Shown here piece by piece: positions 1 to 20,925 of a stretch of 35,611 nucleotides of DNA (positions are counted from its first letter, which is position 1; each line of letters begins with the position of its first letter). The DNA lies in IMG/VR virus record IMGVR_UViG_3300042465_001705, positions 1-35,611 of that record. One strand, given 5' to 3'. The translations under genes were made by a program, and so were the position numbers. This DNA is from a virus. Taxonomy: Duplodnaviria > Caudoviricetes. The notes under the pieces were generated by a model that made no database searches, had not been told where the DNA came from, and saw only the letters and a list, made by a program, of their open reading frames with translations.

Positions 1-1644
1 TCAAATACTGTTTTTGGCGACCCTTGCTCTGGCATCGGGAAAAGACTTCAAATCATTTTGCATTACTCACCAGTAACACCAGCGCCCGAGCCTTCATCAA
101 TCTGCCCACCTAGCAATTTAACAATTAGTGATGATGGCAGTTTGCTAACACTTAATTGGTCTGCACCTAGTTGCGGAAATGTTCAACCAGAGAGATATGC
201 AATTGCTTTTAACGCATCTGGAGGTGGATGGGGAATCGCAACAGGCAATGTTGGAGATGCCCAAGCCTTAAACACAACAATTACTATCGGTCACGATTTA
301 CTTTACGGATTAAGACCCGCTGGAACCGAATGGACATTTTCAATTCGCTCCGACAATGACACCTTGAGTATGTATTCCTCTAATTCAAATCTGGTGACAA
401 TGGTGGTTGGCTCAGTTCCCGAGCCTTCTCCTTCGCCTTCTCCAAGCGAGACAGCGACTCCGACTCCCGAACCTTCTCCAAGTCCAGCGGTTCAAGAACC
501 TCAACCGACTCCTCAACCGACACCAGTTGTTTCCCCCAGTTCGGAACCGTCTCCCAGCCCGAATACTCCGATGCCTTCACCAACATCGGAATCACCTTCG
601 ACAGAGACTCCAGCCCCTCAACCTTCCGTAACTCCGACTCCTCAACCGCAACCGAGCCAGGAACCTTCGCAGTCCACACCTGAACCCACACCTTTGCCAT
701 CGCCTATTCCTCCTGCCGTTGAACCAACACCAATTGCAATTCCTGACCCGCCGCCATTACCAGAACCCGACCCTACTCCATTGCCCGATGTCGCCCCGAC
801 TCCCGATGAAATTCCCATTCCCGAGCCTGAGCCAGAACCATTGCCGAGCGAGCCTGAACCAATTCCTGTTGAGCCAGAGCCAATTCTTGAGCCAGAGCCT
901 CCAGTTGAGCCTCCAGTCGAAGCATTAGAACCGCCTGATGTAGCGCCCGAACCAGAACCAGAACCAGTAGACCTACCACCGACAATAGAAGAGCCGTCTC
1001 CTGAACCATTAGAAACCTCCGAGGTTATTGACGATGTTTTATCGGATGGAAAGATTACACCCGCTGATGCTGAAGCGGTAGTTGATTCATTGATGGAAGA
1101 TGGAGAAGTTACCGAAGCCGAAGCGACTGAGTTAATCGAAACTCTTTCAGATGGTGGCGCTTTATCTGGAGCCGAAGAAGATTTAATTCTTGATGCTCTT
1201 TCAGCCGATGGCGAGATTACCCAAGACGAGGTAAACAATCTTTCAGAAACTCTCTCTGGAGACGGAACATTTACTGAATCAGAAAAAGAACTTGTAGCCG
1301 AAGCGATTATTGCTCAATTTGATGGCGCTCCAGTTACAGCCGCGGCAATCGCTGAAGCGGGAATTGATTACGAGAATCTGCCACCCGAGACTCCAGTTGA
1401 AACCCGCGTTGATGAAAGCGGAGAACCAATTGTCGTCATAGCCGAAATTGCAGATGCCCTTGAGTTGGTAGCAAACCCAGCCGAATTAGTAGGGGCAATT
1501 TTTACCGACCCTGCTAAGGCACTTATGGCGCTGGGAAATATAGGGGCAGATATGTCCACAACAGAACGCGAAGAATCACAAACAGTTGTTGTTGCCTCGG
1601 TCATCGTGGGAGCAATCGCATCACTATCTATAAGGAGAATGTAA
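1..1644 (+). CDS. 5'-truncated large surface/virion protein: end of SUEL/Gal-lectin-like domain, FN3-like domain, long Pro/Glu-rich linker, acidic repeats, C-terminal hydrophobic segment
   Basis: Frame is open from base 1 (SNTVFGDPCSGIGKRLQIILHY), so the ORF-track start at 58 is probably not the true start. FGDPCxGxxKxL is the SUEL lectin motif; PPSNLT..LTLNWSAP..FSIRS is FN3-like; PEP/PSP-rich region; imperfect LSxDGxITxxE repeats; ends VVVASVIVGAIASLSIRRM. Confidence 0.7.
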   Translation, partial: SNTVFGDPCSGIGKRLQIILHYSPVTPAPEPSSICPPSNLTISDDGSLLTLNWSAPSCGNVQPERYAIAFNASGGGWGIATGNVGDAQALNTTITIGHDLLYGLRPAGTEWTFSIRSDNDTLSMYSSNSNLVTMVVGSVPEPSPSPSPSETATPTPEPSPSPAVQEPQPTPQPTPVVSPSSEPSPSPNTPMPSPTSESPSTETPAPQPSVTPTPQPQPSQEPSQSTPEPTPLPSPIPPAVEPTPIAIPDPPPLPEPDPTPLPDVAPTPDEIPIPEPEPEPLPSEPEPIPVEPEPILEPEPPVEPPVEALEPPDVAPEPEPEPVDLPPTIEEPSPEPLETSEVIDDVLSDGKITPADAEAVVDSLMEDGEVTEAEATELIETLSDGGALSGAEEDLILDALSADGEITQDEVNNLSETLSGDGTFTESEKELVAEAIIAQFDGAPVTAAAIAEAGIDYENLPPETPVETRVDESGEPIVVIAEIADALELVANPAELVGAIFTDPAKALMALGNIGADMSTTEREESQTVVVASVIVGAIASLSIRRM

Positions 1645-7485: not shown

Positions 7486-8907
7486 ATGGCAGAAAAGCCA
7501 GATATGCAGGAGTTAGGCTCTACTGGATTACGCCGCTCAGGTGGAACAGTTTATGAGGAATTCCTTGTTAATCTCCGTGGACTTCGCGGTGCAAAAGTTT
7601 ACCGCGAGATGTCTGATAATGACCCGACCATTGGTTCAATGCTTTATGCAATTGACAAAGTTATTACCCGTCTTGAATGGCGCTTAGACCCGTTCACAGA
7701 TGATTCCGCTGATGGAGATGCAAGTCCAGAAGATAAAGAGTTAGCAGTATTTATTGAATCCTGTTTGCACGATATGTCCGATTCATGGGATGCCACACTT
7801 TCTCAAATTCTCTCAATGCTTATCTTCGGATATTCATATCACGAAATTGTTTACAAGATTCGCACAGGTCCAGATGCAAAAGACCCATCCAAGCGTTCTA
7901 AATACACCGATGGAAAAATTGGCTGGCGTAAATTGCCTATCCGCGCTCAAGAAACTTTATTTCGTTGGCAGATTGACGAAAAAGGTGGAATTCAAGCAAT
8001 GGAACAAAGCGACCCATCATCAGGTGGCAGTCACATAATTCCTATTGAAAAGGCTTTGCTCTTCCGCACAACTTCACAAAAGAATAACCCAGAAGGTCGT
8101 TCTATCCTCCGTAATGCTTATCGCCCTTGGTTCTTCAAGCGCCGTATTGAGGAAATTGAAGCAATCGGTATCGAGCGCGATTTAGCAGGACTACCAGTTG
8201 CCTATGTTCCGCCTGAATATCTTTCATCAAGTGCGACTACTGAGCAAGCAAGCGTTCTCGCCTCTATCCAGACTCTTGTTACTTCTATCAAGCGCAATGA
8301 GCAAGAAGGCGTAATTTTCCCAGTTCTATTTGACGACCAAGGCAATAAGCAATTTGACCTTCAACTTCTATCTTCAGGCGGCTCACGCCAGTTCGATACA
8401 GACAAGATTGTCCAGCGCTATGACCAGCGTATGTCCATGTCAATCCTTGCTGACTTTATTCTTCTTGGTTCAGACCGCGTTGGTTCTTATTCCCTAGGTT
8501 CATCAAAGATGGATTTATGGTCAATGGCAGTTGATTCAATTGCTAAGAACATTGCTGAGGTTATGAATCAATACGCAATTCCTCGCCTTATGAAACTTAA
8601 TGGAATGGATGCAACACGCGCTCCAATTCTTACTTACGGCGAAGTAAGCCATGTTGATTTGACCGAGGTTGCAGATTACATTTCCAAGTTGGCTACCGCT
8701 GGTGTCCTTATGCCAGACCCTAAGTTGGAAGATTACCTACGCGATTTGGCTGGACTACCACCTGCCGAGCATGATGGACAGGCTTACGGCGCTCCAGCAA
8801 TGCCAGGTGAAGAAGGCGCTCCAGCAGAATTTGATGCTCCACCATCTCTGGAAGAAGAATTGGAAATTCCAGAAGGACAGGAACCGCTAGACGGCGATTT
8901 GGAGTAG
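7486..8907 (+). CDS. phage portal protein (Mu gp29/DUF935-like)
   Basis: 473 aa; Y.EM..ND, FGYSYHEIVY, NNPEGRSILRNAY..W.FK, GS.SLG, IPRL..LNG, EDYLR...GLP; lies directly before MuF. Confidence 0.9.
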   Translation: MAEKPDMQELGSTGLRRSGGTVYEEFLVNLRGLRGAKVYREMSDNDPTIGSMLYAIDKVITRLEWRLDPFTDDSADGDASPEDKELAVFIESCLHDMSDSWDATLSQILSMLIFGYSYHEIVYKIRTGPDAKDPSKRSKYTDGKIGWRKLPIRAQETLFRWQIDEKGGIQAMEQSDPSSGGSHIIPIEKALLFRTTSQKNNPEGRSILRNAYRPWFFKRRIEEIEAIGIERDLAGLPVAYVPPEYLSSSATTEQASVLASIQTLVTSIKRNEQEGVIFPVLFDDQGNKQFDLQLLSSGGSRQFDTDKIVQRYDQRMSMSILADFILLGSDRVGSYSLGSSKMDLWSMAVDSIAKNIAEVMNQYAIPRLMKLNGMDATRAPILTYGEVSHVDLTEVADYISKLATAGVLMPDPKLEDYLRDLAGLPPAEHDGQAYGAPAMPGEEGAPAEFDAPPSLEEELEIPEGQEPLDGDLE

Positions 8908-8910
8908 AGC

Positions 8911-9921
8911 ATGGCAATTAGGTTCGGCTCTGGCTCAGATGGCTCCAGAAACCCTTTAACCGCTGAAGAAGCGGCAATGGCGCGAGTCCTCGTCAATGCA
9001 ATCCGCAATGCAACGGACAAAATCAAAGTGGATGAGTTGGCTCGGATTCTCGGGCGACTTGATGCCGATACTTTAGACCGATTACTGCGAGCAATCTCTA
9101 TCAATAGCGATGCCGCAAAGATTGAAGCGCAGTTGCTTAACATCATTGACCTAGGTGGCAAGGATGCAATCAAGGGTCTACGAGATATTGCCCCTCAGTT
9201 GGCTTTGCCAGCGTTTCTGCCTACCCAAGTTCGTATTGCCAATCCCGAAGCAATGGCAAATATGGATTTTGCAAACATTCCTAACTGGGCAAGAGTTAAT
9301 CCAGAACCAATCGCCTTTAGTCTTTCTTTCAATAGGACTAACCCTAATTCTTTAGCCTTTGCTTCTCGCAGAGCAGGGCAGTTGGTGACCAGTATTGATA
9401 ACCTCACACGCGAGGCAATCCGAAAGATAATTATTGATTCATTCAATGAGCAGATTGATGTAAGACGAACAGCAGTTCGAATCAAAAACATAATTGGTTT
9501 GCATCCGAAGTGGGCTGACGCAGTAAAGAAATTTGAAGTTCGAGAATATAACCGTTTAATTAACGCTGGCATCAAAGAGGCTAAAGCAATCGAACGCGCC
9601 CAGAAATCTGCTACCGCTTATGCAGACAGATTAAAGAGCGCTAGAGCAAAGACCATTGCCCGCACCGAAATTCAAATAGCCCAAAATGAAGGGCGCATGG
9701 AAGGTTACCGCCAAGCCGATGAAGCGGGATACATAGACCCAGCGACCATGAAAATGTGGATTACAGCCCCAGATGAGCGCACCTGCGATATTTGTGCGCC
9801 CTTGAATGGAGAAGTTGTGCCTTGGATTGGAACTTTCTCTATCGGTCTGGAGAAGCCAATAGTTCACCCTAATTGCCGTTGCACCTTCGTAATCTTGCCT
9901 CCAGATAGAGGCACTAAATGA
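8911..9921 (+). CDS. MuF/SPP1 gp7-like minor head morphogenesis protein without C-terminal toxin extension
   Basis: RAKTIARTE...W.T..DERTCDIC..LNG...HPNCRC; follows the portal. Confidence 0.9.
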   Translation: MAIRFGSGSDGSRNPLTAEEAAMARVLVNAIRNATDKIKVDELARILGRLDADTLDRLLRAISINSDAAKIEAQLLNIIDLGGKDAIKGLRDIAPQLALPAFLPTQVRIANPEAMANMDFANIPNWARVNPEPIAFSLSFNRTNPNSLAFASRRAGQLVTSIDNLTREAIRKIIIDSFNEQIDVRRTAVRIKNIIGLHPKWADAVKKFEVREYNRLINAGIKEAKAIERAQKSATAYADRLKSARAKTIARTEIQIAQNEGRMEGYRQADEAGYIDPATMKMWITAPDERTCDICAPLNGEVVPWIGTFSIGLEKPIVHPNCRCTFVILPPDRGTK

Positions 9922-11855
9922 AAGTAATCAAGTTCGCGCCTGGGCTTATCCCAGTTCTAAAACACCAAGAACATGACCAATCTACCCACGGTTCATGGGC
10001 TGAAGGTTCTCAGGGAACAACAAGCAACCTTTCAGATGATGAAATACGCGATGTTATCTATAACTCAAAGACAGTCAATGAGATGTTCCAAAAGGTCGCT
10101 AAGCGCCTAGGTAAGAGCATGAAGCCATCGGTAGACAATCTTTCTGAGGATGAAATTACCCATTACCGAGGAGTTCAAGATGTAAGCAGGGATGCCCAGC
10201 GATTACTTGACGGAAAAATTAAGTTTACAGAATTCCAAACATGGGGTCAGGGAATCTATCTTGCTGAAGATAAAGGCATTGCCTCTAACTACGGAACTTT
10301 GATAGGCATGAAACTAGATTCAAGCGCAAAGATTGTTCAAGGAGAAACAACATGGGATAGCGCCTTTGATGTCAGTTACGACAATCCGAGAGCCAGAACC
10401 CGCAATACAACAACATCAAGTTTTATAGATTTAGGAAGAATTGAGACACAGATTCGTGCTGGAAAAATGGACAACCTTTCTATCTCAGATATGCGTAATA
10501 TCTATTGGGCGGCTAAAGGCTATGACGGCTTTACTACATACGGCGAAACAGTTTTATTCAATGGCAGTAAATTAACCATTAACAAAGCGGATATTGGTAG
10601 CGCTATTCAAAAGCATCTTGCAGGTCAGCACGACCAAAAAACTCATGGTCGTTGGGCTGGTTCAGGATTGCCTCACGAACTTGAGGATGTAAAAGGCTCA
10701 ATCCAAAAGTATTTTGATTCGGGAGCAATTGTTAAAAAAGGAGAGGTGACTCGCCCAAAGCGGGATTATCAACCTAGAGAAGATGGGTCTGGTTACGACT
10801 TTGTAACAACGAGAGTTCCAGTAAGAGACAGTTTAGACCAACCTTTTATGACATTCAGAGAACCTGACTCTGATAAAGACCCCGAGGGTTACAAGATTTT
10901 CAAAGAATATGAAGCCAAAATGCTTGGTGGAAATTATGATGAAATAAAAGATGCCGCTCAACAGGAAGCCCTTGATGCTGGCATGGGTTCTCGTCAGGCT
11001 CTTTATTATGGACAGGCTATTGCATCCCGAGCATCTTTATATGTCACTATGCACAATGAGGCACTTCGTCAAGAAGCGGCAGAAATAGTTTATTCAAGAG
11101 ATGTAAGCAACTATCAAGAAGTTGGCATGAAAGAATACTTTGACCAAAGAACAAAGACAATGAAAACTCTTTCTGACAACATAAGTAAGGCTCAACCAGT
11201 TGTTGCGATTGAAACCGAAAATTTTCTTGGCGTTATCAAAGACGGAAGATTTAAGACTCAGCACGAAACAAGAGAGTCCAATGGAGCATATAAGCCAGCC
11301 CTTCGTAAAGAGGCTGAGTTAGCGATAGCAGGGGTTCCCCTTGATACCAAATCTGCCGAACGCCCTATCTATGGTTACTTGGCAGTTCAAAATGATGGAA
11401 CAACACCCAATACATCTCCGTATAACACGGACAAATGGAATGTTAATAATGCAGGTGTTGGTCAATATGGCGAAGTTCGGGTTGTCCTTAAAGATTCAGT
11501 TAAGGAGCGAACCTCTTACACAATTCCAGATTCTTTGGATAGAAACGCAATCCCACAGCCTTTAAGCAGGAACAGCAAGGCAGATTTAATCAATGCTGGG
11601 GCATATTACGACTTATCGCAGAGCCATGGGGGATACCAGCGTGAAAGTTATGCCGAGGCTCAAGTCTATGGAGGGGTTAAAATCTCGGACATAAAGGCTG
11701 TTTATGTAGTGCCATCAAGCGACTACAATTACGAAACTAATACCTATACGCCGAGAGACCATGTAGGGCAAGCAGACTCAATCCGTTCCGCGCTAACCGC
11801 TAAAGGTTTTGATATACCAGTTGAAGTTCTTCCATTACCAAAGAAAGGGGATTAA
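9918..11855 (+). CDS. two-module effector polyprotein: tag + ART-like domain; tag + DUF3626-like domain
   Basis: Tags at 9960 and 10611. Module 1: HYRG..WGQGIYLA....A.NYG..KGYDG. Module 2: GRFKTQHET..S.G, RPIYGYL, QYGEVRVVLK, RTSYT..DS, YAEAQVYGGV. Confidence 0.65.
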   Translation: MKVIKFAPGLIPVLKHQEHDQSTHGSWAEGSQGTTSNLSDDEIRDVIYNSKTVNEMFQKVAKRLGKSMKPSVDNLSEDEITHYRGVQDVSRDAQRLLDGKIKFTEFQTWGQGIYLAEDKGIASNYGTLIGMKLDSSAKIVQGETTWDSAFDVSYDNPRARTRNTTTSSFIDLGRIETQIRAGKMDNLSISDMRNIYWAAKGYDGFTTYGETVLFNGSKLTINKADIGSAIQKHLAGQHDQKTHGRWAGSGLPHELEDVKGSIQKYFDSGAIVKKGEVTRPKRDYQPREDGSGYDFVTTRVPVRDSLDQPFMTFREPDSDKDPEGYKIFKEYEAKMLGGNYDEIKDAAQQEALDAGMGSRQALYYGQAIASRASLYVTMHNEALRQEAAEIVYSRDVSNYQEVGMKEYFDQRTKTMKTLSDNISKAQPVVAIETENFLGVIKDGRFKTQHETRESNGAYKPALRKEAELAIAGVPLDTKSAERPIYGYLAVQNDGTTPNTSPYNTDKWNVNNAGVGQYGEVRVVLKDSVKERTSYTIPDSLDRNAIPQPLSRNSKADLINAGAYYDLSQSHGGYQRESYAEAQVYGGVKISDIKAVYVVPSSDYNYETNTYTPRDHVGQADSIRSALTAKGFDIPVEVLPLPKKGD

Positions 11856-12962
11856 ATGATTAAAGGTCAAATCCTCTATGCCAAAAATAGCGGCTCGGTA
11901 ATTCTCTTTGATGAAGAAAGAGATGGAGTTATGTATGCCCATGTAAGGGCTAACGGTCAAGATTACGAATCCAGAAGTCTTGCTGGAATTCTTGCTAAAG
12001 GCTATTGGAATGAAGTTTATATTTCTATGGATGTTGATGTAACCGTCAAGCATCTTGCGGGTCTACACGACCAGCGCACCCACGGTTCATGGGCAGGAGG
12101 CGGCGGCGCAGGAGTTGATATTACTGAGGCGCTTGATGAAGTATTTTTTAATAGCAAACTAGACATAAAAGAAAGTAAAATTTTTCCTGGCAATTTAAGA
12201 ATCGTTGTTCAATCCGAGATTGAACGCTCAGGATTAAATAAAGAAACAGTAGATTTAATTGATGAAATGTCTGAAGCGCAGATAGCAAGTGGGCAAGCCT
12301 ATGGAGACAATGCGCTCAAAATTATTGCCGAGCGTCAGGGATTTACAGGTAAACCTAAAACGGTTGAGAGCGTTGAGGATTTGGAAGAAATACAAAAGAC
12401 CGATGGAGGTATTTTGGTCTACCGTGGTCTTTCTAACTATTCAAAAGAAGCAATAGAGATAAGCGCTAGACACAGCAGAGCAGAAATTGATGGTGGTAAA
12501 CCCTATAAACAAATACCACAAATTATTAGAGAAACTAAAGAACTAGAGGCGGCGAAGGTTAGTTACACGGCTGAACAAGCGCTGACAGATTTTACAGAAG
12601 GCGAGTATTTTGGCGGCTGGGGAGTTTTTGGCAACGGCACCTACACGACTGTTCGCGTAGAGGAGGCTAATACTTACACACAAACTAGAGATTACGATAG
12701 TGGAAAGTTAGGCAATGGCAAAATTGCGGCGATGCTAATTCCGAGAGATGCTAAAGCACCAAGCAAAGAGGTTGTTGCAACTGTCGTAAAAAACATGGTT
12801 TATGGTGGAGAGCCAAATCATCGTAACAATGTAGGCAGGATGCTTGCCTCCATGGGCTACCAGTATTACGATGCTGGTTATGTTCAAAGTGACAAAGGCG
12901 GTATTTTTGTAGTCCTTGATAGGTCAATGCTTACAGTTGCAAAGAAAGCGAGCGGAGAATGA
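11856..12962 (+). CDS. 64-aa leader + tag + ART-like domain
   Basis: Tag at 12048; LVYRG...GVFGNGTYT...A.TY...GYQYYD resembles module 1 of the upstream gene. Confidence 0.55.
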   Translation: MIKGQILYAKNSGSVILFDEERDGVMYAHVRANGQDYESRSLAGILAKGYWNEVYISMDVDVTVKHLAGLHDQRTHGSWAGGGGAGVDITEALDEVFFNSKLDIKESKIFPGNLRIVVQSEIERSGLNKETVDLIDEMSEAQIASGQAYGDNALKIIAERQGFTGKPKTVESVEDLEEIQKTDGGILVYRGLSNYSKEAIEISARHSRAEIDGGKPYKQIPQIIRETKELEAAKVSYTAEQALTDFTEGEYFGGWGVFGNGTYTTVRVEEANTYTQTRDYDSGKLGNGKIAAMLIPRDAKAPSKEVVATVVKNMVYGGEPNHRNNVGRMLASMGYQYYDAGYVQSDKGGIFVVLDRSMLTVAKKASGE

Positions 12963-13798
12963 TGCTTACTCCAGTTCAATCACAACGCTACGCCCAATTA
13001 GTCAATAAGTTCAATGAAAAAGAATTCTATGCCTATTACGCACATCTGAGCGAAGGCGGAACAGTCGAAGATTTTTTTAGCAAGATGGAAAAACACCAAG
13101 AGCATGACCAGTCCACTCATGGTAACTGGGCTTTAAGTGAGAATTATCCAGATTTATTAACCCTAGGCACATTCGATGAAGAATCTGAATATGACCCAGC
13201 ATTGATGGTTTATAGCGAGCGCTACGGGATAGACAAAGACGGCAAAATTGTTGGAGTTGAGACTTTTGAGCATGATGCAATAGATAGTTATTCTCAAGAG
13301 GGATACAAAAATATAAACGCATACCTTCGTGAATCAAGAAGCGTGGGAGGCGAAAGTTACGCCAAATTTCTTCAACAAAAGGTTGATGGGTTAGATTCTT
13401 TGATTGATAAGGCTCCAGATATGTTTGGGGATAAAACTTTATTTAGAGTTGTAGATAACTTTGTTTTAGGACAATTAACCCCAGGAGATACTCTCCGAGA
13501 TAAAGGTTTTCTATCTACAACCAGAATAGATTTAACAAAAGATACCGATGCTCGGGATGCGCTTGGTGAAATTTATGACACACCTGATACGGTTGCTGTA
13601 ATTCTTCCAAGTCCAAGCAAAAGCGGTAAAGGGCTTGCGGTAGACCTCTATCGAACCTCTGTCAATGATACAAGTTCGGTATCAGATAGGGAAAAGGAAG
13701 TTCTATTACCCCGTAGCACAGACCTATTATTTTTAGGATACAAAAGAGGTATAGGCTCTGAAGATAAGGTTGCAGTCTTTCAAAGGGTGGATAAATGA
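12959..13798 (+). CDS. leader + tag + VIP2/C3-like ADP-ribosyltransferase
   Basis: Tag at 13091; Y....YKNINAYLR, LFR, GFLSTT, EKEVLLPR form the R-S-ExE signature. Confidence 0.85.
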   Translation: MMLTPVQSQRYAQLVNKFNEKEFYAYYAHLSEGGTVEDFFSKMEKHQEHDQSTHGNWALSENYPDLLTLGTFDEESEYDPALMVYSERYGIDKDGKIVGVETFEHDAIDSYSQEGYKNINAYLRESRSVGGESYAKFLQQKVDGLDSLIDKAPDMFGDKTLFRVVDNFVLGQLTPGDTLRDKGFLSTTRIDLTKDTDARDALGEIYDTPDTVAVILPSPSKSGKGLAVDLYRTSVNDTSSVSDREKEVLLPRSTDLLFLGYKRGIGSEDKVAVFQRVDK

Positions 13799-14541
13799 GT
13801 AAATTTAGAACCACATTTGAAGATATTGAGATTATCAAGCCTGTAAAAAAACATGGCGAGCATGACCAGAAAACCCATGGTTCTTGGGCAAATGGAACAA
13901 GTGCGCTACCTGAAGGAATAGGCTATAAAGATTCAGATGTGGTTTTTCATGCTGAGTATGGTTCAACCGAAGAACAGGGTCCTTATGTAGAGGATTACAC
14001 AATGAACGCATACGGTCCAATAAATCAATACCTCCGAACTGGCAAATTTCAAGAAGATAATGAGTCGGGTCTCAAACAATCAGATGTTGCAGAATATAGA
14101 AGCGCTTTGGATTATGTGATAGGTCGCACAGAAGCGCCTAGAGATATGCTCCTTTATAGAGGAACAAGTGGAGTTGATAAATTCGATACTCTTAAAGTAG
14201 GCGATGTATTCAAAGATAAGGGTTATGTCTCCACGACAACCAAGCCTGACCAATTATGGGATTTTATGTCTACCGCCACAGGTGGCAATTATGACAGTAG
14301 ACCAGTAGAAAAAGGTTATGTTCTGCAAATAAATGTTCCCAAGGGCAATAATGTTCTATCTGTAAACCGCTACTTTAAGGGCATAAGTGAGAGATACGGT
14401 CCTACCGAGGGAATCCGTGAGGAGAATGAACATATACTTCCAAGAGGCACAAAATTTAGAGTGGATAGCATTAGTTCCGTTGATGTAAGAGGCGGAATCC
14501 AAGATAAGTTGATTAAGGTGACGGTGGTAAACGATGGCTAG
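13795..14541 (+). CDS. leader + tag + VIP2/C3-like ADP-ribosyltransferase
   Basis: Tag at 13849; YT...Y..INQYLR, LLYRG, DKGYVSTT, ENEHILPRGTKFRV. Confidence 0.88.
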   Translation: MSKFRTTFEDIEIIKPVKKHGEHDQKTHGSWANGTSALPEGIGYKDSDVVFHAEYGSTEEQGPYVEDYTMNAYGPINQYLRTGKFQEDNESGLKQSDVAEYRSALDYVIGRTEAPRDMLLYRGTSGVDKFDTLKVGDVFKDKGYVSTTTKPDQLWDFMSTATGGNYDSRPVEKGYVLQINVPKGNNVLSVNRYFKGISERYGPTEGIREENEHILPRGTKFRVDSISSVDVRGGIQDKLIKVTVVNDG

Positions 14542-17161
14542 TAAATATGTTTACACCGACCCAGATGAAATTGAGATTGTTGTATCTAAACACGGCACCC
14601 ACGACCAAAAGACGCATGGAAACTGGGCTACGGGCGGCACTCTTTACACGGGCATTATTGACCGCTTAAGCCGTAAAGATATAACTGGATTCAGTCTGGA
14701 TATTTCCAGCCGTAGCGAACCTACTAGCGGGTATATGTGTTCTAAATCTGGGGCTGAGCAGACAGTTGCCTATGAGGATTTCTTCTCAAGCCGTGATAAG
14801 AGCCGAGAGTTTCTCTTGGATTACATGGAGAAGAACGCAGATGCGCTCAGCGAGCGCGGAGCCTATTTTGGTATATGGGTTGTAAAAGACCAAGGAACCG
14901 TGTATCTTGATGTCTCACGCCGTTATGACACCAGAGGCGAAGCAGTTCGCGCTGGATTCGATAATGAACAGCAATCTGTTTATGACATTGAAAAAGACGA
15001 CTATATCTATATGAAAGATGAGGAAGATGACCGAACAAGAAAAGCCGTTATTGATGGAAGTTCCAATCCCCGTCAATCAAATGACTCCAGAGCAGAAGCG
15101 AGCCTTCGCGGAAGAGATTCTCAACGCAATCGAGAAGAATCGCCCCATGTCTGCCTCGGAAGATACCAAGGCGTAAAAAAACACCTAGAGGGTCAGCATG
15201 ACCAAGCCACACATGGCAGTTGGGCATCTGGTCGCTTTGGTCCAGATTCAGTAAAGTCAGCAAGAGATGGCGCAAAAGAATATGCCTTCAAAGCGGGAAT
15301 CGAGCAAGATGATTCTATTGACTATCAAAAAACAGTTGCTAATAGAGCGAGAGCGGCGCGTATTGCCGATGCTTATGATGAGTTGCCTACGGTTCAAGAA
15401 GAAGCCTTCCCTGCCTACACAGCCCTTGCAACAGAGGTAGAAGCACAGTTCGATTACATGACAAAGACCATGGGCGTTAAGGTCGAGTTCGTAGATGCAG
15501 ACCCATATAAGACTTCCCGAGAAATGTTTGCCGATGTAAGCAAAGGCATCTTAAAGGTTTTGAAAACAGCCTCTACTGGCTCTCACCCATTCTTCACGGA
15601 TGAGCAAAACGACAAGTTTCGAGCAGTTCACGATTTCTTTGGACACGCGGCAACAGGTCGAGGTTTTGGTCAAGATGGAGAAGAGTCCGCTTGGGTTCAT
15701 CATTCACAGATGTTTACAGAAACCGCTCGCGGTGCGCTCACCACAGAAACCCGTGGGCAAAACTCTTTTTACAACACACGCAATCAGGGATTCGCTGAGC
15801 AGAAAGTAGCACTTCTGCCTAAAGAGTTCTGGGAAGTTCCAAAGACATTTGAAAAGCAATACAGAGTAATTAAATTCCAAGCAGGGCTTACCCCTGTTCT
15901 AAAGCATCAAGAACATGACCAGCGAACACACGGTTCATGGGCTAACGGATATACAGCCGAAGAAACTGCTCGCATGGATGAGTTGCAAAACTATGGACCA
16001 GCACTAGAAGATTTAGATGAAATCATAAACAGTATGAAAAACCCTAATCCTGGAATGGATGATTTCAGAAGAATTATTGAAAATAACGCAAATAAATACG
16101 ATGCCGCTACCGAGGGTATTGAGGAGCGGGTAGCAGAACGCCTTGCAAACTTACAAGCAGAGTTTCCAAATCACGAATATACAGAGCAAGAAAAAGCAAC
16201 AATTTATGACGATGTGCAAACCGAAATGATTGATGAATACATAGATGATAACTCCGATGACTTACACGCCGAATATGCGGCAAGCATAGGAACGGGCGAT
16301 ATAGAAACCTTAACTTACCAAGCACAGGCTTTCTTTGAGGACATCTACAACACAGACCACAAAGTATTAGATTCTAATGACCAATATGTCACAACCCTCA
16401 AATCAGAAATTCTCTCCGTAGATGCCACCACTAATGATATTGCTGGTGAATACAGACCAACAATTGAATTAAGGGGTCAAGTTACCGATGATAATGGTAA
16501 TTTTGCTGGAGAGTTCCAACGAATCTTCTACAAGCAAGACGGTGTATGGATGGTGGAACACGCACTATTTAAGATGGAAGATGATTACAAAGGGCTTGGA
16601 TTTGGTAAGCAGTTCATCCAGCGCCAAGAGGATTGGTATGCCCAGCGCGGGTTTGGGGCAATAACAGTATCTACTGGATGGGATGGCGCTCGCGTTTGGG
16701 CGCGTTCAGAGTTCGACTGGGATACAAGAAGCGTTCATAGAGATATTAGTGAAATCGTTCGTATGACAAATTATTCAACAGATTTTGATGAAGGGTCTCC
16801 TGCAAAAATCCAATTAGATGCTCTCATGGAAAGGGCTACAAATGGATACAACCCTCAAACAAAAACTTTTGATTCACTCAAAGATATTAAAAATGATGAT
16901 TTCCCGTTGCCGAACGATTTTGCAATGCTTGGATATGGTGGCAAAAAATCTAGCACTTATATCTCGCCAATTACAGAAGAAGAAAAGGTTGAATACAGTT
17001 GGGCTGGGCAGAGGCTATTGCAGAATATGAATTTACATTACACAAAGGTTCTTACAGCCGAGGGTCGCAACCTCTTCGATGGTCCAATTGACCGAGATGG
17101 CGATGGGTTAGTTTATGACGGCACCAGTAGAGAAAAGCCAGCAAGTGCGGTAAACTCATAA
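14534..17161 (+). CDS. three-module effector polyprotein: unknown domain; FRAVHD..GH/ETRGQNS domain; GNAT-like acetyltransferase
   Basis: Tags at 14588, 15179 and 15902. Module 3 has F.MEDDYKGLGFG (GNAT motif A-like) and G..VWAR..FDW; C-terminal DRDGDG. Confidence 0.7.
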   Translation: MASKYVYTDPDEIEIVVSKHGTHDQKTHGNWATGGTLYTGIIDRLSRKDITGFSLDISSRSEPTSGYMCSKSGAEQTVAYEDFFSSRDKSREFLLDYMEKNADALSERGAYFGIWVVKDQGTVYLDVSRRYDTRGEAVRAGFDNEQQSVYDIEKDDYIYMKDEEDDRTRKAVIDGSSNPRQSNDSRAEASLRGRDSQRNREESPHVCLGRYQGVKKHLEGQHDQATHGSWASGRFGPDSVKSARDGAKEYAFKAGIEQDDSIDYQKTVANRARAARIADAYDELPTVQEEAFPAYTALATEVEAQFDYMTKTMGVKVEFVDADPYKTSREMFADVSKGILKVLKTASTGSHPFFTDEQNDKFRAVHDFFGHAATGRGFGQDGEESAWVHHSQMFTETARGALTTETRGQNSFYNTRNQGFAEQKVALLPKEFWEVPKTFEKQYRVIKFQAGLTPVLKHQEHDQRTHGSWANGYTAEETARMDELQNYGPALEDLDEIINSMKNPNPGMDDFRRIIENNANKYDAATEGIEERVAERLANLQAEFPNHEYTEQEKATIYDDVQTEMIDEYIDDNSDDLHAEYAASIGTGDIETLTYQAQAFFEDIYNTDHKVLDSNDQYVTTLKSEILSVDATTNDIAGEYRPTIELRGQVTDDNGNFAGEFQRIFYKQDGVWMVEHALFKMEDDYKGLGFGKQFIQRQEDWYAQRGFGAITVSTGWDGARVWARSEFDWDTRSVHRDISEIVRMTNYSTDFDEGSPAKIQLDALMERATNGYNPQTKTFDSLKDIKNDDFPLPNDFAMLGYGGKKSSTYISPITEEEKVEYSWAGQRLLQNMNLHYTKVLTAEGRNLFDGPIDRDGDGLVYDGTSREKPASAVNS
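15027..15176 (+). CDS. nested out-of-frame small ORF (49 aa), candidate immunity protein
   Basis: +1 frame inside 14534..17161: MTEQEKPLLMEVPIPVNQMTPEQKRAFAEEILNAIEKNRPMSASEDTKA; spans the linker between modules 1 and 2 and ends 2 nt before tag 7. Confidence 0.5.
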   Translation: MTEQEKPLLMEVPIPVNQMTPEQKRAFAEEILNAIEKNRPMSASEDTKA

Positions 17162-17162
17162 T

Positions 17163-17309
17163 ATGGACAGACTAGAGAGACTCAAGCGCATCGCTCGTAT
17201 AAACGCCTCCATGCCCTCAGAAGTAGATGGCGCTCCAGATGACCAAGAAATTGCTATCCTTGATGAATTGGTGAGAATGAAATTAACTCCAGTAGAGGAA
17301 ACTAAATAA
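17163..17309 (+). CDS. small protein (48 aa), candidate GNAT antitoxin
   Basis: ATG 1 nt after the upstream stop; MDRLERLKRIARINASMPSEVDGAPDDQEIAILDELVRMKLTPVEETK. Confidence 0.6.
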   Translation: MDRLERLKRIARINASMPSEVDGAPDDQEIAILDELVRMKLTPVEETK

Positions 17310-17340
17310 CGGTTGTAATTCAATCCGCTACTATGTATAC

Positions 17341-19566
17341 ATGGCGGATATTGCACCAAAACTCGTAGAACTAAGCGCGGATAAACTACGCGCCCTACAC
17401 GAACGCCTTCACAAATCTGAAGCCTCTCCAGAGGTCTTAGAAGTCCATCACCTAGCAGTCAATGAGATGTTGCGCCGTGGCTTAGAAGCCCCAGCCAATG
17501 ATGCGTGGGATGAGTTCGAAATCCTTGTAGACACAATGAAGAACGCCAATCTTGAAGCCCTATCTGGCTCGCTTCCACCCGAGATGGTTGAAGATGTTAT
17601 TAAAACAACGGGTTCCTCAGTTGCCAATGTTCAACTTTTCTTAACTACTACTGGGTATGAAATGCGCCTTGAAGAAGTTGAAAATGTAAACAAAATGATT
17701 CGCCGTGAAAACGGAAAATGGACAGTTTACGATGAGAAAGGCAAGCGACCTTTTGGCACATACGATACTAAGGCTGAGGCTGAGAAGCGCCTAGCGCAAA
17801 TGCACCAGTTCAAAAAGGCAGAAACATTTACACCGCCAAAGGCAGTTCGAAGCGCCGCTCGCAGAGCGCTTGAATGGATTGCTGACGGTAAGGCAGGAAG
17901 TGGCTTTACGGGAGTTGGTCGCGCTCGCGCTAACCAATTGGCTTCAGGCGAGCAAGTAACAATGGCAACACTCAAGCGCATGAAGTCTTTCTTCTCGCGC
18001 CACGAAGTTGATAAAGATGCAGTCGGATTTAGCCAAGGAGAAAAGGGCTATCCAAGTGCAGGTCGAGTTGCTTGGGATGCTTGGGGCGGAGACGCAGGAT
18101 TCGCTTGGGCTGAATCGCTAGTGGCTGAAAACGACAAGAAAATTGAAAAGCACAATCAGGGTAAGCACGACCAAAAAACTCACGGCTCTTGGGCAGATGG
18201 CATTGCTCAAACAATCTTGGATGGCGGTCACCCAACAGTTGAAAAGGAAAATGTTTCTGCCTTCTTGATGAAAGCGGCAAAGCGAACAGACCATCCAGAC
18301 CTTACTGAGTTGAGCATTGAAGGAACATTGCTTTATGGCGATGAGGGAATGGGAATTGCCCGTAAAGATATGCCTCAGATTCCTGGAAAAGAACGCGCTC
18401 GCTTCTTATCTGAGATTGAAAGTGAACAAGGAATCACGGCAGAAAAAGAGAAGGTAGACCCACTTACTCTCAAGCCTATTCAGAAAGAAATCTCAGCATC
18501 TCGCTCTGGTGCTATCTATGAGAAGTTCCGTGAAGATGGAAAGATTCCAAAGGATGAGCGCATCTTGATTTCTAGCGATGGCTTTGTTGTTGATGGTCAC
18601 CACACATGGGGCGCGGCTGTTGCATTTGCTTTCGATAATCCTGGAACTGAGTTGCCCGTCTATCGCTTATCAGTAACAGCAAAAGAAGCAATGGATGTCT
18701 CGCTCACATGGTCAAAGGCGAATGGATTTGAAAGTCAGGCTATTGATGCTCCAGCAAAGAAATCTCTTGCTTGGCAAACAATTTCAAAACATCAAGAGCA
18801 TGACCAAGCAAGCCATGGTTCATGGGCTAATGGCGGAGATAGTGCAATTCCAGCACTAGCACCAGATGTAGAACCTAACGCAAAATGGTCAGCAGATGCG
18901 GTTGCCAAGGCAAGGGCTATTCGAGAAAAGGCGCTTGCAGTTGAGCCAAAAGTTACAGAGTTGATGAAAACTATTCAAGAAAACTCTGGTGGTGAATTTG
19001 TCCAGTTAGACCAAAGAGTTAAATCAACAGATTCCCTAGCAAGCAAGATTGATAGAGAAGCCGTCTCAGAGTTCGATGGTGATAGGTCAAGAGCGGCTGA
19101 TGCTGTTTCTGATGCAGTTCGCTATACCCTCAAGGTAGGCGATGAGAGTTATGCTCAATCCCTTGATTCAACGGTTAAGGCTCTTGAGGCATCGGGCTTT
19201 GCATTACGAGTTAAGAATTTCTGGCAGTCTGGTGACCCTTACGATGGAGTCAATATCAAGGCTACAAAAGACGGAATTACAGTTGAAGTCCAGTTGCATA
19301 CACGCAGTTCCTTTGCCCACAAAGAAGGAGAGGGTGGAACCCATAAAATTTACAAGCAATATCAGGTTGAGTTGAATGACCCTACCCGTGAATCTATGTG
19401 GAATCAGATGATTGATATTGCTAAGGGTGTTACTCGCCCAGCAAACTACGGAGCAATTTTGGCTACTGGAACCCTTGTTCTGCAACAGTTCCAGACCGCT
19501 CAAGAGGCTGGCTTGATTAAATCAACCCCAGTTGATATTCTATCCCTTAAGAGAGGAGGGGAGTAA
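17341..19566 (+). CDS. multi-module polyprotein: N-terminal head-associated domains; tag + ParB/Srx-like domain; tag + RelA/SpoT-like synthetase
   Basis: WDAWGGDAG domain; tag 18148 then LKPIQKEI..ILISSDGFVVDGHHTW; tag 18787 then RVKS, DAVRY, YDGVN, EVQLHT; leaderless-type start (TACTAT 17329-17334). Confidence 0.75.
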   Translation: MADIAPKLVELSADKLRALHERLHKSEASPEVLEVHHLAVNEMLRRGLEAPANDAWDEFEILVDTMKNANLEALSGSLPPEMVEDVIKTTGSSVANVQLFLTTTGYEMRLEEVENVNKMIRRENGKWTVYDEKGKRPFGTYDTKAEAEKRLAQMHQFKKAETFTPPKAVRSAARRALEWIADGKAGSGFTGVGRARANQLASGEQVTMATLKRMKSFFSRHEVDKDAVGFSQGEKGYPSAGRVAWDAWGGDAGFAWAESLVAENDKKIEKHNQGKHDQKTHGSWADGIAQTILDGGHPTVEKENVSAFLMKAAKRTDHPDLTELSIEGTLLYGDEGMGIARKDMPQIPGKERARFLSEIESEQGITAEKEKVDPLTLKPIQKEISASRSGAIYEKFREDGKIPKDERILISSDGFVVDGHHTWGAAVAFAFDNPGTELPVYRLSVTAKEAMDVSLTWSKANGFESQAIDAPAKKSLAWQTISKHQEHDQASHGSWANGGDSAIPALAPDVEPNAKWSADAVAKARAIREKALAVEPKVTELMKTIQENSGGEFVQLDQRVKSTDSLASKIDREAVSEFDGDRSRAADAVSDAVRYTLKVGDESYAQSLDSTVKALEASGFALRVKNFWQSGDPYDGVNIKATKDGITVEVQLHTRSSFAHKEGEGGTHKIYKQYQVELNDPTRESMWNQMIDIAKGVTRPANYGAILATGTLVLQQFQTAQEAGLIKSTPVDILSLKRGGE

Positions 19567-20267
19567 TGAGATATTTCGTAAAAATGAGTAGAGGCTTACC
19601 CTATAACCTTTATCGCTTCAATATCGTAGATGAGGAACGCTGGTATCCAACGCAGGGTTGGACACCCACCAGAGTCATTTCAGCCTATCTAGTTATGGGC
19701 GAAGGCGACTATGAAGAGATTACTGAAGCCCTTGCCATGAGTTCATTTCCAGATGCCTTCGCAGTTGTAAAGAGCATTGGAGCCTATGAAGTTTCAAAGG
19801 CTGAAGATGCTAAGCGTTACACACTAGGCGCTATGTATATCCCAGACCGTATTGATGCCCATGGTGAATGGACAGATGCAGATGAGTTGCAAAGAGCAGT
19901 TTGGGATTATGTAAAAACAAATGACCGCCGTATCCGTCTGCAACATAACCGCGATGTAGTCGCAGGTGAATGGGTAGAAGTTATGGCGTTCCCATACGAA
20001 CTAACAGTTCCAATTAAGACTATTACTGGAATTGATGTAAACCATACCTACCCACCAAACACAGTATTTCTCGGTGTTATCTGGGAGCCTTGGGCTTGGG
20101 ATTTAGTTAAGACTGGAAAGATTCTTGGCTATTCAATCGGCGGTAAAGCAGAACGCCTTTATGTTGATATGGAAGAAGTTGAAAAAGAAGATGGTCCAGG
20201 AGTGTCCGATGTCCATGTTGATACAATTATGAACCCGAAGAAAAAGAAGCCAAAGGAAACCAAATGA
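19566..20267 (+). CDS. XkdF-like putative prohead serine protease with ~70-aa N-terminal extension
   Basis: KRYTLGAMYIPDRIDAHGEW..A.EL..A.W.Y, LQH, W..VK.G.I.GYSIGG; position upstream of scaffold and capsid. Confidence 0.8.
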   Translation: MRYFVKMSRGLPYNLYRFNIVDEERWYPTQGWTPTRVISAYLVMGEGDYEEITEALAMSSFPDAFAVVKSIGAYEVSKAEDAKRYTLGAMYIPDRIDAHGEWTDADELQRAVWDYVKTNDRRIRLQHNRDVVAGEWVEVMAFPYELTVPIKTITGIDVNHTYPPNTVFLGVIWEPWAWDLVKTGKILGYSIGGKAERLYVDMEEVEKEDGPGVSDVHVDTIMNPKKKKPKETK

Positions 20268-20925
20268 AAGACAAAAAGATTCTCAAAGAACTTCGTCAGG
20301 GTCCTATGAAAAATATAAAGGATGACGAATACGCCATGATTGAGGAACAAGTCAATCAAAAGGGAATCTCAGGTCTAAAGGGTTACGCTAAATCCATAGT
20401 TGAAAAGGCTATGCGAGACATGGCTTACGACATGAAAAAGGCTGTTTCTGTATCAATGGGTGACATGGTTTCTTGGAATTCATCAGGCGGCAGAGCAACA
20501 GGCAAGGTTGTGCGTATTGTGCGCGGGGGCAAAATCAATGTTCCTGATTCAAGTTTCTCAATTGAAGGAACCGAAGATGACCCAGCCGCTTTGATTCAGT
20601 TGTATCGTGATGGAAAGCCAACTGAGACAAAAGTTGGTCACAAGGTTTCAACGCTAAAAAAAAACTAGAAGTATCTAAGCACGGTAGCCACGACCAGAGT
20701 TCACACGGAGCATGGGCTAATGGCAAATATAACCCAGATGATTCAGAGGGTGAAGATGCCTCAGAGCCAAAGAATTACGGAAAACCGACTCCAAAACTTC
20801 ACAGTCATAACGATGATTCAGAAGAAGAATACGAAGAATTAGATGCAGACGACCCAAGATGGATGGATGATATGGATATTATGCGACCATCCCGAATCAC
20901 TCCAAGCCAGAGGTATCCAAAGTAA
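20264..20925 (+). CDS. protein with DUF2945/Hva1 Tudor-like domain (20264..20668), extended by a probable -1 frameshift into a tag + acidic tail ending at 20925
   Basis: GDMVSWNSSGG.ATG.V...EDDPA...VGHK.STL; A AAA AAC then TAG at 20659-20668; -1 frame reads LEVSKHGSHDQSSHGAWANG... to TAA 20923-20925. Confidence 0.65.

Follow-up and report, generated by a model that had tools for sequence, protein, structure and literature searches.

The window analysed here, the 35,611-nucleotide (nt) linear virus record IMGVR_UViG_3300042465_001705 of a freshwater phage (Caudoviricetes; 59 % complete), carries an array of tagged enzyme genes between a short MuF gene and the gene for an XkdF-type prohead protease. 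The repeating unit of this array consists of a KH..HDQ..HG.W tag, an enzyme, a stop codon, a short partner peptide and the next tag. These cassettes are exchanged at the tag, partner families pair one to one with enzyme families, and homologues of the partners exist as free-standing genes. We put at roughly 70 % the probability that the partners are immunity proteins holding the packaged enzymes inactive in the producing cell, with the protease trimming the partners from the next protein and the enzymes shedding them on ejection. An original prediction, made from the letters of the window, had proposed that cassettes of tag, toxin and immunity gene were inserted serially; the cassette unit and the exchange at the tag are borne out, and inhibition itself is what we infer.

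Leader families follow the upstream enzyme

Relatives were fetched from IMG/VR by the MuF protein (best 80 of 178), by the protease (best 80 of 284) and by the DNA pattern of the tag (a lower bound). The merged set comprises at least 221 stretches including the window, with the tag present in 212. Proteins were cut at the tags and the segments clustered, the variable cargos forming 37 clusters with at least two members whose order is shuffled among the relatives. One cluster, C0, joins the 269-amino-acid (aa) front of the gene at 17341 with the Apk2 domain described below, and in counts of what follows C0 the last segment is Apk2.

Junctions were retained if the leader had at most 110 aa and an intact start and if the gap between the genes was -30 to +40 nt, giving 368 junctions and 131 distinct upstream-leader-downstream triples. 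Removal of 37 triples whose leader family was seen once, and then of 23 following MuF, left 71. The leader family predicts the upstream family in 64 of these 71 distinct junction types and the downstream family in 19. Among 10,000 label shuffles none attained 64 and 9,972 attained 19. Five of six upstream mismatches that were inspected involve short fragments cut by a contig end. Thus the leader type tracks the upstream toxin, as had been proposed, and co-occurrence, examined on both sides, is with the upstream gene instead of the downstream domain.

Profile matches give the same picture for each family. The 64-aa 'GYW' partner (11856..12050, ending ...ILAKGYW...) is joined through a Lys-His tag to the next cargo and follows DUF3626 in 17 of 18 matches; the tagged DUF3626-like cargo of the window (10662..11855) has an invariant Y-x-E-x-Q motif. 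The 43- or 44-aa partner (12959..13093, with possible starts at 12959 and 12962) lies between the tagged ART-PolyVal-like cargo (12099..12962) and the ADP-ribosyltransferase (ART) to which it is fused, and its family follows the ART-PolyVal-like cargo or fragments of it in 24 of 25 matches. Two tagged VIP2/Alt-type ARTs come next, ART1 (13136..13798) and ART2 (13894..14541), each followed by an 18-aa partner, fused to ART2 in the first case (13795..13851) and to an 875-aa polyprotein in the second (14534..14590). The resemblance between these two leaders had already been remarked upon; they belong to one family, which follows a VIP2-type ART or ART fragment in 102 of 103 matches, the remaining one lying at a contig start. 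The free 48-aa partner (17163..17309) of the GNAT-like cargo has relatives after all 64 distinct GNAT gene ends. The 69-aa 'MRYF' extension of the protease (19566..19772) follows Apk2 in 82 of 84 matches, the other two being at contig starts. A Pfam scan of 11 leader sequences returned no hits.

Partners of DUF3626 as free-standing genes

Stand-alone homologues of the leaders, the search for which had been suggested, were found after the same toxin families in tagless phages. Eighty DUF3626 loci were fetched, of which 63 were distinct and scorable and 41 tagless. In 19 of the 41 the next gene starts with a homologue of a DUF3626-linked leader (at least 12 bits; the best unrelated decoy of 1,599 reached 10.4). 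Twelve of these are free genes of 56-78 aa and seven are fused to the next gene, three of them via other short tags. In the cultured phage DSL-LC01 a free 62-aa gene directly follows DUF3626 and matches the profile with an E-value (E) of 8e-13; the small genes after DUF3626 in mycobacteriophages Tierra and L5 match no leader profile.

Partners joined to next genes through other short tags, of the FNP.H/QPRD and GGPGSGNYGH types, occur in L437, L443, L479 and L626, so that daisy-chaining is not confined to the HDQ tag.

The GYW partner is predicted to be a small folded beta/alpha domain (predicted local distance difference test, pLDDT, 81). A VIA search with this model had a best Z of 4.6 and returned nothing informative. 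Prediction of a complex between the DUF3626 domain and its 64-aa leader gave a median of 0.25 against a mark of 0.32, with controls not folded, and is not used as evidence.

VIP2-type ARTs and the 18-residue peptide

At 19 ART-leader-ART junctions leader similarity tracks the upstream ART with a rho of 0.93 and the downstream ART with 0.66, and the leader subtype is predicted by the nearest ART in 84 of 85 cases. Four Gordonia phages carry a similar stretch directly after an ART. Forza (gp81) and GMA2 (gp15) have it as a free gene; in GMA6 (gp14) it heads the following gene, and in ChisanaKitsune (gp22) it sits on the C-terminus of the ART itself. The peptide motif, present in 75 of 80 leaders and in 0.56 % of decoys, is matched by three of the four. 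Their profile scores are modest (8.1, 5.2, 3.0 and 1.0 bits, equalled by 1, 3, 14 and 106 of 3,063 decoys). Searching cultured phages by tblastn with ART2, the ART-PolyVal-like cargo and the GNAT cargo gave no match.

ChisanaKitsune genes 22-23 (L564) and GMA6 genes 13-14 (L565) encode head-region proteins headed by another shared tag, K.G..VRD.E.WG.P.GTPI. This Gordonia tag system is an experimentally reachable analogue. A 243-kb contig of a large phage (L627, L632, L637, L638) carries many tandem VIP2-like ART genes without these partners; several of them begin with MK.FK.L.E, which we take to resemble a T4-type targeting peptide.

The Apk2-like synthetase and the protease extension

The last cargo of the array (18832-19563), a tagged RelA/SpoT-type alarmone synthetase, is 35 % identical over 190 aa to the MuF-Apk2 toxin domain of a Streptococcus pneumoniae phage (E 3e-27). 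It is followed by the MRYF extension, which ends in V-V-K immediately before the XkdF-type (S78_2) protease (19773..20267; PF14550, E 1e-11). Among 94 proteases, MRYF is present after Apk2 in 80, an unrelated extension of about 80 aa follows a Zeta toxin (PF06414) in seven, and five have no extension, the tagged cargo running straight into the protease; the remaining two are start miscalls.

Where the Zeta toxin replaces Apk2 (L222:8406-9350 and the next gene), all seven proteases have this different extension of about 80 aa, a candidate epsilon-like antitoxin.

The gene after apk2 in pneumococcal prophages is iapK, which encodes an active-site blocker (PMC12226406), and genes in the iapK position are Tis1-like (PMC10083569); IapK and Tis1 both occlude the active site of their toxin (PMC12226406, PMC10083569). 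MRYF is predicted to be an autonomous fold (pLDDT 94.6), and 1.84 billion representatives include 210 homologues of it at E<=0.001; among the 150 listed, 103 of those taken into the profile have the size of stand-alone proteins (60-95 aa). Four genes in the iapK position score 6.4-12.8 bits on the MRYF profile, against 6.6 for the best of 468 decoys, and outrank nine other proteins tested. Comparing MRYF with IapK, its identity assigned from gene position in phage records, hhalign gave a probability of 50 % and, with a wider profile, of 81 % (E 1e-5, 33 columns), against 0.3 % for an unrelated control. Tis1 (6OX6_B) ranks 7 of 48,161 chains against the MRYF model (Z 3.2, root-mean-square deviation 3.8, 56 aligned). 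A Foldseek search with the model returned nothing at E<=0.001, a PDB sequence search with the profile nothing below E 0.028. Scanning GTDB with the Apk2 alignment gave no confirmed case, and a second IMG/VR scan with Apk2 recovered close relatives only. Because these individually weak signals from profiles and models combine with gene position, homology of MRYF to IapK and Tis1 appears likely, although not certain.

Natural fusion variants fit an immunity link for MRYF. One protein is a tandem of GYW and MRYF, and another, a single open reading frame (ORF), joins Apk2, a Lys-Ala site, MRYF and the protease (P0155, P0102); several relatives place MRYF before tagged ARTs and other cargos.

Exchange and predicted cleavage at the tag

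In a six-frame scan of the window the tag, K-H-x2(4)-H-D-Q-x-x-H-G-x-W, was found eleven times, on the plus strand only. Ten copies, of the form K-Hxx(xx)HDQxxHGxW, lie within 9960..18825, with the His of HDQ at 9972, 10629, 12066, 13103, 13861, 14600, 15197, 15914, 18166 and 18799; the eleventh is at 20689, 3' of the protease. A different cargo domain follows each tag. When the array was compared with its relatives by blastn, 55 of 88 alignment starts and 43 of 77 ends fell within 40-45 nt of a tag, where 8.6 % is expected, near-identical relatives being counted repeatedly in these figures; by distinct positions the counts are 15 of 32 starts and 17 of 35 ends. Of the alignments that cover a leader, 26 reach the upstream cargo only, none the downstream cargo only and one both; none covered the 64-aa leader. 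Leaders thus travel with upstream DNA, and the exchanged unit is tag, enzyme, stop and partner. Exchange at the tag explains why the partner is fused to the head of the following gene.

Proteases of the HK97 type are described as cutting after Lys. Lys precedes the first His of the tag in 406 of 408 distinct contexts, and V, L, I or M stands two places before that Lys in 487 of 518. The motif [VILM]xK[AHS] occurs 26.6 times per 1000 residues in the scaffold-like protein; its density is 0.1-2.6 in portal, MuF and SSB, and 0-2.6 when several further non-head families are included. By analogy with T4 gp21 (PMC9026906), the Lys motif of the tag has the pattern expected of a prohead protease site. 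Cleavage there had been proposed to detach each immunity peptide. The motif enrichment speaks for such cleavage, but the predicted cut would release each partner from the protein that it heads, the product of the next gene, and would not part it from its toxin.

Downstream of the protease, a Hva1-TUDOR gene (20264-20925) ends in an A-run and a stop, and its -1 frame runs into the eleventh tag and an acidic tail. In relatives a -1 shift is needed in 46 of 76 cases, 20 are in frame and 10 are without a tag match. Programmed frameshifting or slippage is likely.

Organization and setting of the array

All ORFs and leaders named in the original prediction are present at their positions, including the free 48-aa ORF after the GNAT and the extension of about 70 aa (69 aa) between the RelA/SpoT domain and the protease. 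Its domain labels fared unevenly. Both VIP2-like ARTs match PF03496 (ART1, E 2e-11; ART2, E 3e-16) with the invariant S and E-x-E; the DUF3626 match is weak (E 3e-4, under the Pfam cut-off); and the 'ART-like' cargo and the GNAT are Atlas leads only, of 0.88 for the ART-PolyVal-like cargo and of 0.94 for the GNAT-like cargo, the latter family label resting on 20 % of members. Five cargos close with a stop, and the next gene opens within a few bases with a short leader and then a tag (or, at 19566, the protease). The GNAT-like cargo is the sixth to end in a stop, and the free 48-aa gene follows it. Successive genes either touch or share 1-8 nt, and at most of the junctions the final codons of the upstream gene contain a Shine-Dalgarno-like run.

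All elements from MuF to the protease are on the plus strand. The array begins after the short MuF head-morphogenesis gene (8911..9921; PF04233, E 5e-14), which is without a toxin domain and serves as upstream anchor. A 14-aa leader plus Lys of the VIKF.PGL.PVLK type (9918..9962) follows MuF and is not toxin-linked. The first tagged cargo (10005..10610) is related to the ART-like cargo at 12099 and runs in frame into the next tag, with no partner peptide. After the second 18-aa peptide come three tagged in-frame cargos (14633..17161), namely an unknown (14633-15178), a phrog_3170 cargo (15230-15901) and the GNAT-like cargo (15947-17158). A 741-aa phrog_2859 protein (17341..19566) then combines the conserved 269-aa front with two tagged cargos, one at 18199-18786 and the Apk2-like synthetase. 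The claim that each gene has an immunity leader therefore went too far: the leader at 9918 follows MuF, the front of the gene at 17341 is a conserved head region, and the cargo at 10005 has no partner.

The VIKF.PGL.PVLK peptide sits between two Lys sites, after MuF and after two in-frame cargos. It recurs as an internal linker near 15860-15900 and stands at the end of 33 in-frame phrog_3170 cargos and, among in-frame C4 cargos, of 37 of 80; it is a candidate loading signal distinct from the toxin partners. In relatives, zincin-like (HExxH) cargos (L010:11966-12704, L084:2059-2142, L195:8100-8846) have their own cognate leaders with Cys or Asp at the aligned spot, presumably recalling cysteine- or aspartate-switch propeptides.

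The portal gene (7486-8907) lies directly 5' of MuF, with WhiB and SSB genes further 5'; the scaffold-like gene (21288) lies 3' of the protease and the major capsid gene (22477) 3' of that. This order, from WhiB/SSB through portal, MuF, array, protease and scaffold-like gene to capsid, identifies the head module of a tailed phage. Because WhiB marks actinobacterial hosts among freshwater phages (PMC6802176), its presence points to an actinobacterial host. The first kilobase of the window (1-1644) is GC-rich with negative skew and holds a 528-aa ORF without a confident Pfam family.

Interpretation and alternatives

Taken as immunity genes, the partners would belong to a chain of exchangeable toxin-plus-partner cassettes recombining at a common tag, where the partner of each toxin lands on the front of the next gene. 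Late in infection each partner would bind the enzyme of the preceding gene, at about 1:1 through translational coupling, and shield the host until lysis. The tagged proteins would enter the prohead, where the XkdF protease would cut after [VILM]-x-K to yield mature enzymes starting with the His-rich tag and partners freed as small proteins. Once ejected into the next cell, the enzymes would probably leave their partners and act on the new host.

Several observations weigh against partners as immunity proteins. Exchange at the tag lets any leader ride with its upstream gene, so that linkage within the family is no proof of function, and MuF, which lacks a toxin domain, precedes the leader of the 9918 type in 115 of 116 cases; upstream linkage is thus not unique to toxins. 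Some enzyme-like cargos have no partner (that at 10005-10610, in frame in 19 of 19, and the VIP2-like family C100, 3 of 3). No recognisable homologue is found in 22 of the 41 tagless DUF3626 loci. Tagless ART rows show the peptide motif in 6 of 35 only, with three more free 30-44-aa genes alike by eye, and three other cultured-phage ARTs, those of Orisa03 and the Manatee Spring phage and Metamorpho Alt, lack the motif behind them; 18 residues would also be unusually small for an immunity protein. The likeness of MRYF to IapK and Tis1 is weak, as it consists of a single 33-column stretch and a Z of 3.2 that lies within background, and MRYF similarity correlates equally well with Apk2 (rho 0.70) and with the protease (0.71). 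Finally, the model offers no explanation of how toxin and partner separate.

A bolder version, which we regard as rather unlikely, makes the fusions themselves functional. Each leader would grip the preceding enzyme, linking MuF, all the toxins and, at the end, the head protease into a physical chain that silences the toxins, fixes their stoichiometry and loads them together before the protease cuts it apart; the 18-residue peptide would then be a stand-alone inhibitor of VIP2/Alt-type ARTs.

The alternatives differ in what they let the partners do. Leaders could be cognate binding partners of the upstream enzyme but not its inhibitors, serving to tether or chaperone it, to load it into the head or to complete its fold. 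The strict linkage of the MuF-following leader to a protein that is no toxin and the in-frame versions on an enzyme's own C-terminus fit this idea, but free-standing homologues without tag or fusion cannot tether, and the sole family with a characterised look-alike resembles an active-site blocker; we consider it doubtful. Hitch-hiking is a still less probable account, in which the leaders are spacers or relics that hold a start signal and a cut site and ride with the upstream gene through tag exchange. It draws on the position of the exchange points at tags, on the short and variable 18-aa leaders and on the equal co-variation of MRYF with Apk2 and protease. Against it, the same families follow the same toxins in unrelated phages, tagless or with other tags and in four arrangements, and two leaders are predicted folded domains with invariant residues. 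That the leaders serve the proteins they head, as capsid-targeting signals or propeptides of the T4 kind (PMC9026906), accords with their N-terminal position and their ending at a predicted protease site, and the 9918-type peptide may be such a signal, but association with the downstream cargo is nil (19/71; 9,972 of 10,000 shuffles do as well) and homologues exist as free genes, which makes this very improbable. As signals for the downstream cargo, toxin-linked leaders are thus largely refuted, and the 9918-type peptide is still a candidate.

Implications

Immunity by cognate partners would bear on how phages that pack toxic head enzymes avoid killing the producing cell too early. The genetic rule gives each enzyme a candidate antidote, with five partner families in the window and more in relatives (for zincin proteases, the Zeta toxin and other ARTs). 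Such immunity genes are invisible to standard annotation because they mimic N-terminal extensions of the next gene, including the head protease. Cognate pairs become directly testable, and the same pairs are present in cultured Gordonia phages and DSL-LC01. VIP2-like ARTs of freshwater actinophages have been proposed to be aimed at grazing protists (PMC6802176); strict linkage to a partner would be consistent with ARTs that do harm within the bacterial host and so bears on that proposal.

Comparison with known systems

The closest parallel is with the MuF polymorphic toxins (Jamet et al. 2017, PMC5576092; Zhang et al. 2012, PMC3482391), which occupy the same position between portal/MuF and head genes and likewise carry toxin domains of the ART, metallopeptidase and RelA-like kinds; what MuF toxins do and how they are delivered is described as unknown (PMC10083569). 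A small ORF follows the MuF toxin in 89.4 % of 191 cases (Jamet et al. 2017, PMC5576092). A small cognate ORF follows the toxin here as well, but it is mostly fused to the N-terminus of the next gene's product and is free after the GNAT. Moreover, the MuF protein here is short and ends after PF04233, five to seven toxins lie in separate tagged genes, and the cassettes exchange at a peptide-coding tag. The array would thus work like a MuF toxin-immunity system but lacks one defining feature, because its toxins are not fused to MuF.

Apk2-IapK(-Aph1) and Tas1/Apk1-Tis1 (PMC12226406, PMC10083569; PDB 6OX6) share with the array an Apk2-like synthetase (35 % identity) that is followed at once by a protein of about 70 aa, here one of weak IapK/Tis1 likeness. 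Unlike in Apk2-IapK(-Aph1), the putative partner here forms the front of the prohead protease, and there is no Aph1 hydrolase gene after it. Bxa-Bsi/BAH, MuF-type ARTs with immunity proteins (PMC11699363), likewise pair a head-region ART with a small structural inhibitor that it needs; as described there, Bsi is a free gene of at least 92 residues, compared with the 18-residue partner here.

T4 internal proteins and Alt (PMC9026906) are also head-loaded enzymes trimmed by a prohead protease at a three-residue motif, Alt being cut at both ends. T4 gp21 cuts after L/I-x-E and the propeptide serves its own protein (PMC9026906), whereas in the array cutting is predicted after Lys and each leader is assigned to the gene before it. 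The 18-aa peptide motif was not found at the C-terminus of a T4-like Alt. Phage polyvalent proteins (Iyer et al. 2017, PMC5512222) are similar in that head-associated polypeptides carry numerous effector domains and, in some cases, a maturation peptidase; the available text of that paper describes neither a shared tag nor cognate inter-domain partners. Searches of open-licence papers found no account of an immunity protein fused onto the following gene, nor of these families, although some of the small domains could be listed in the supplements of PMC5512222, PMC9503650 and PMC3482391. We regard the array as a new architecture among MuF-type toxin-immunity modules; it supplies five candidate immunity families, all uncharacterised, one of which is an 18-residue ART partner.

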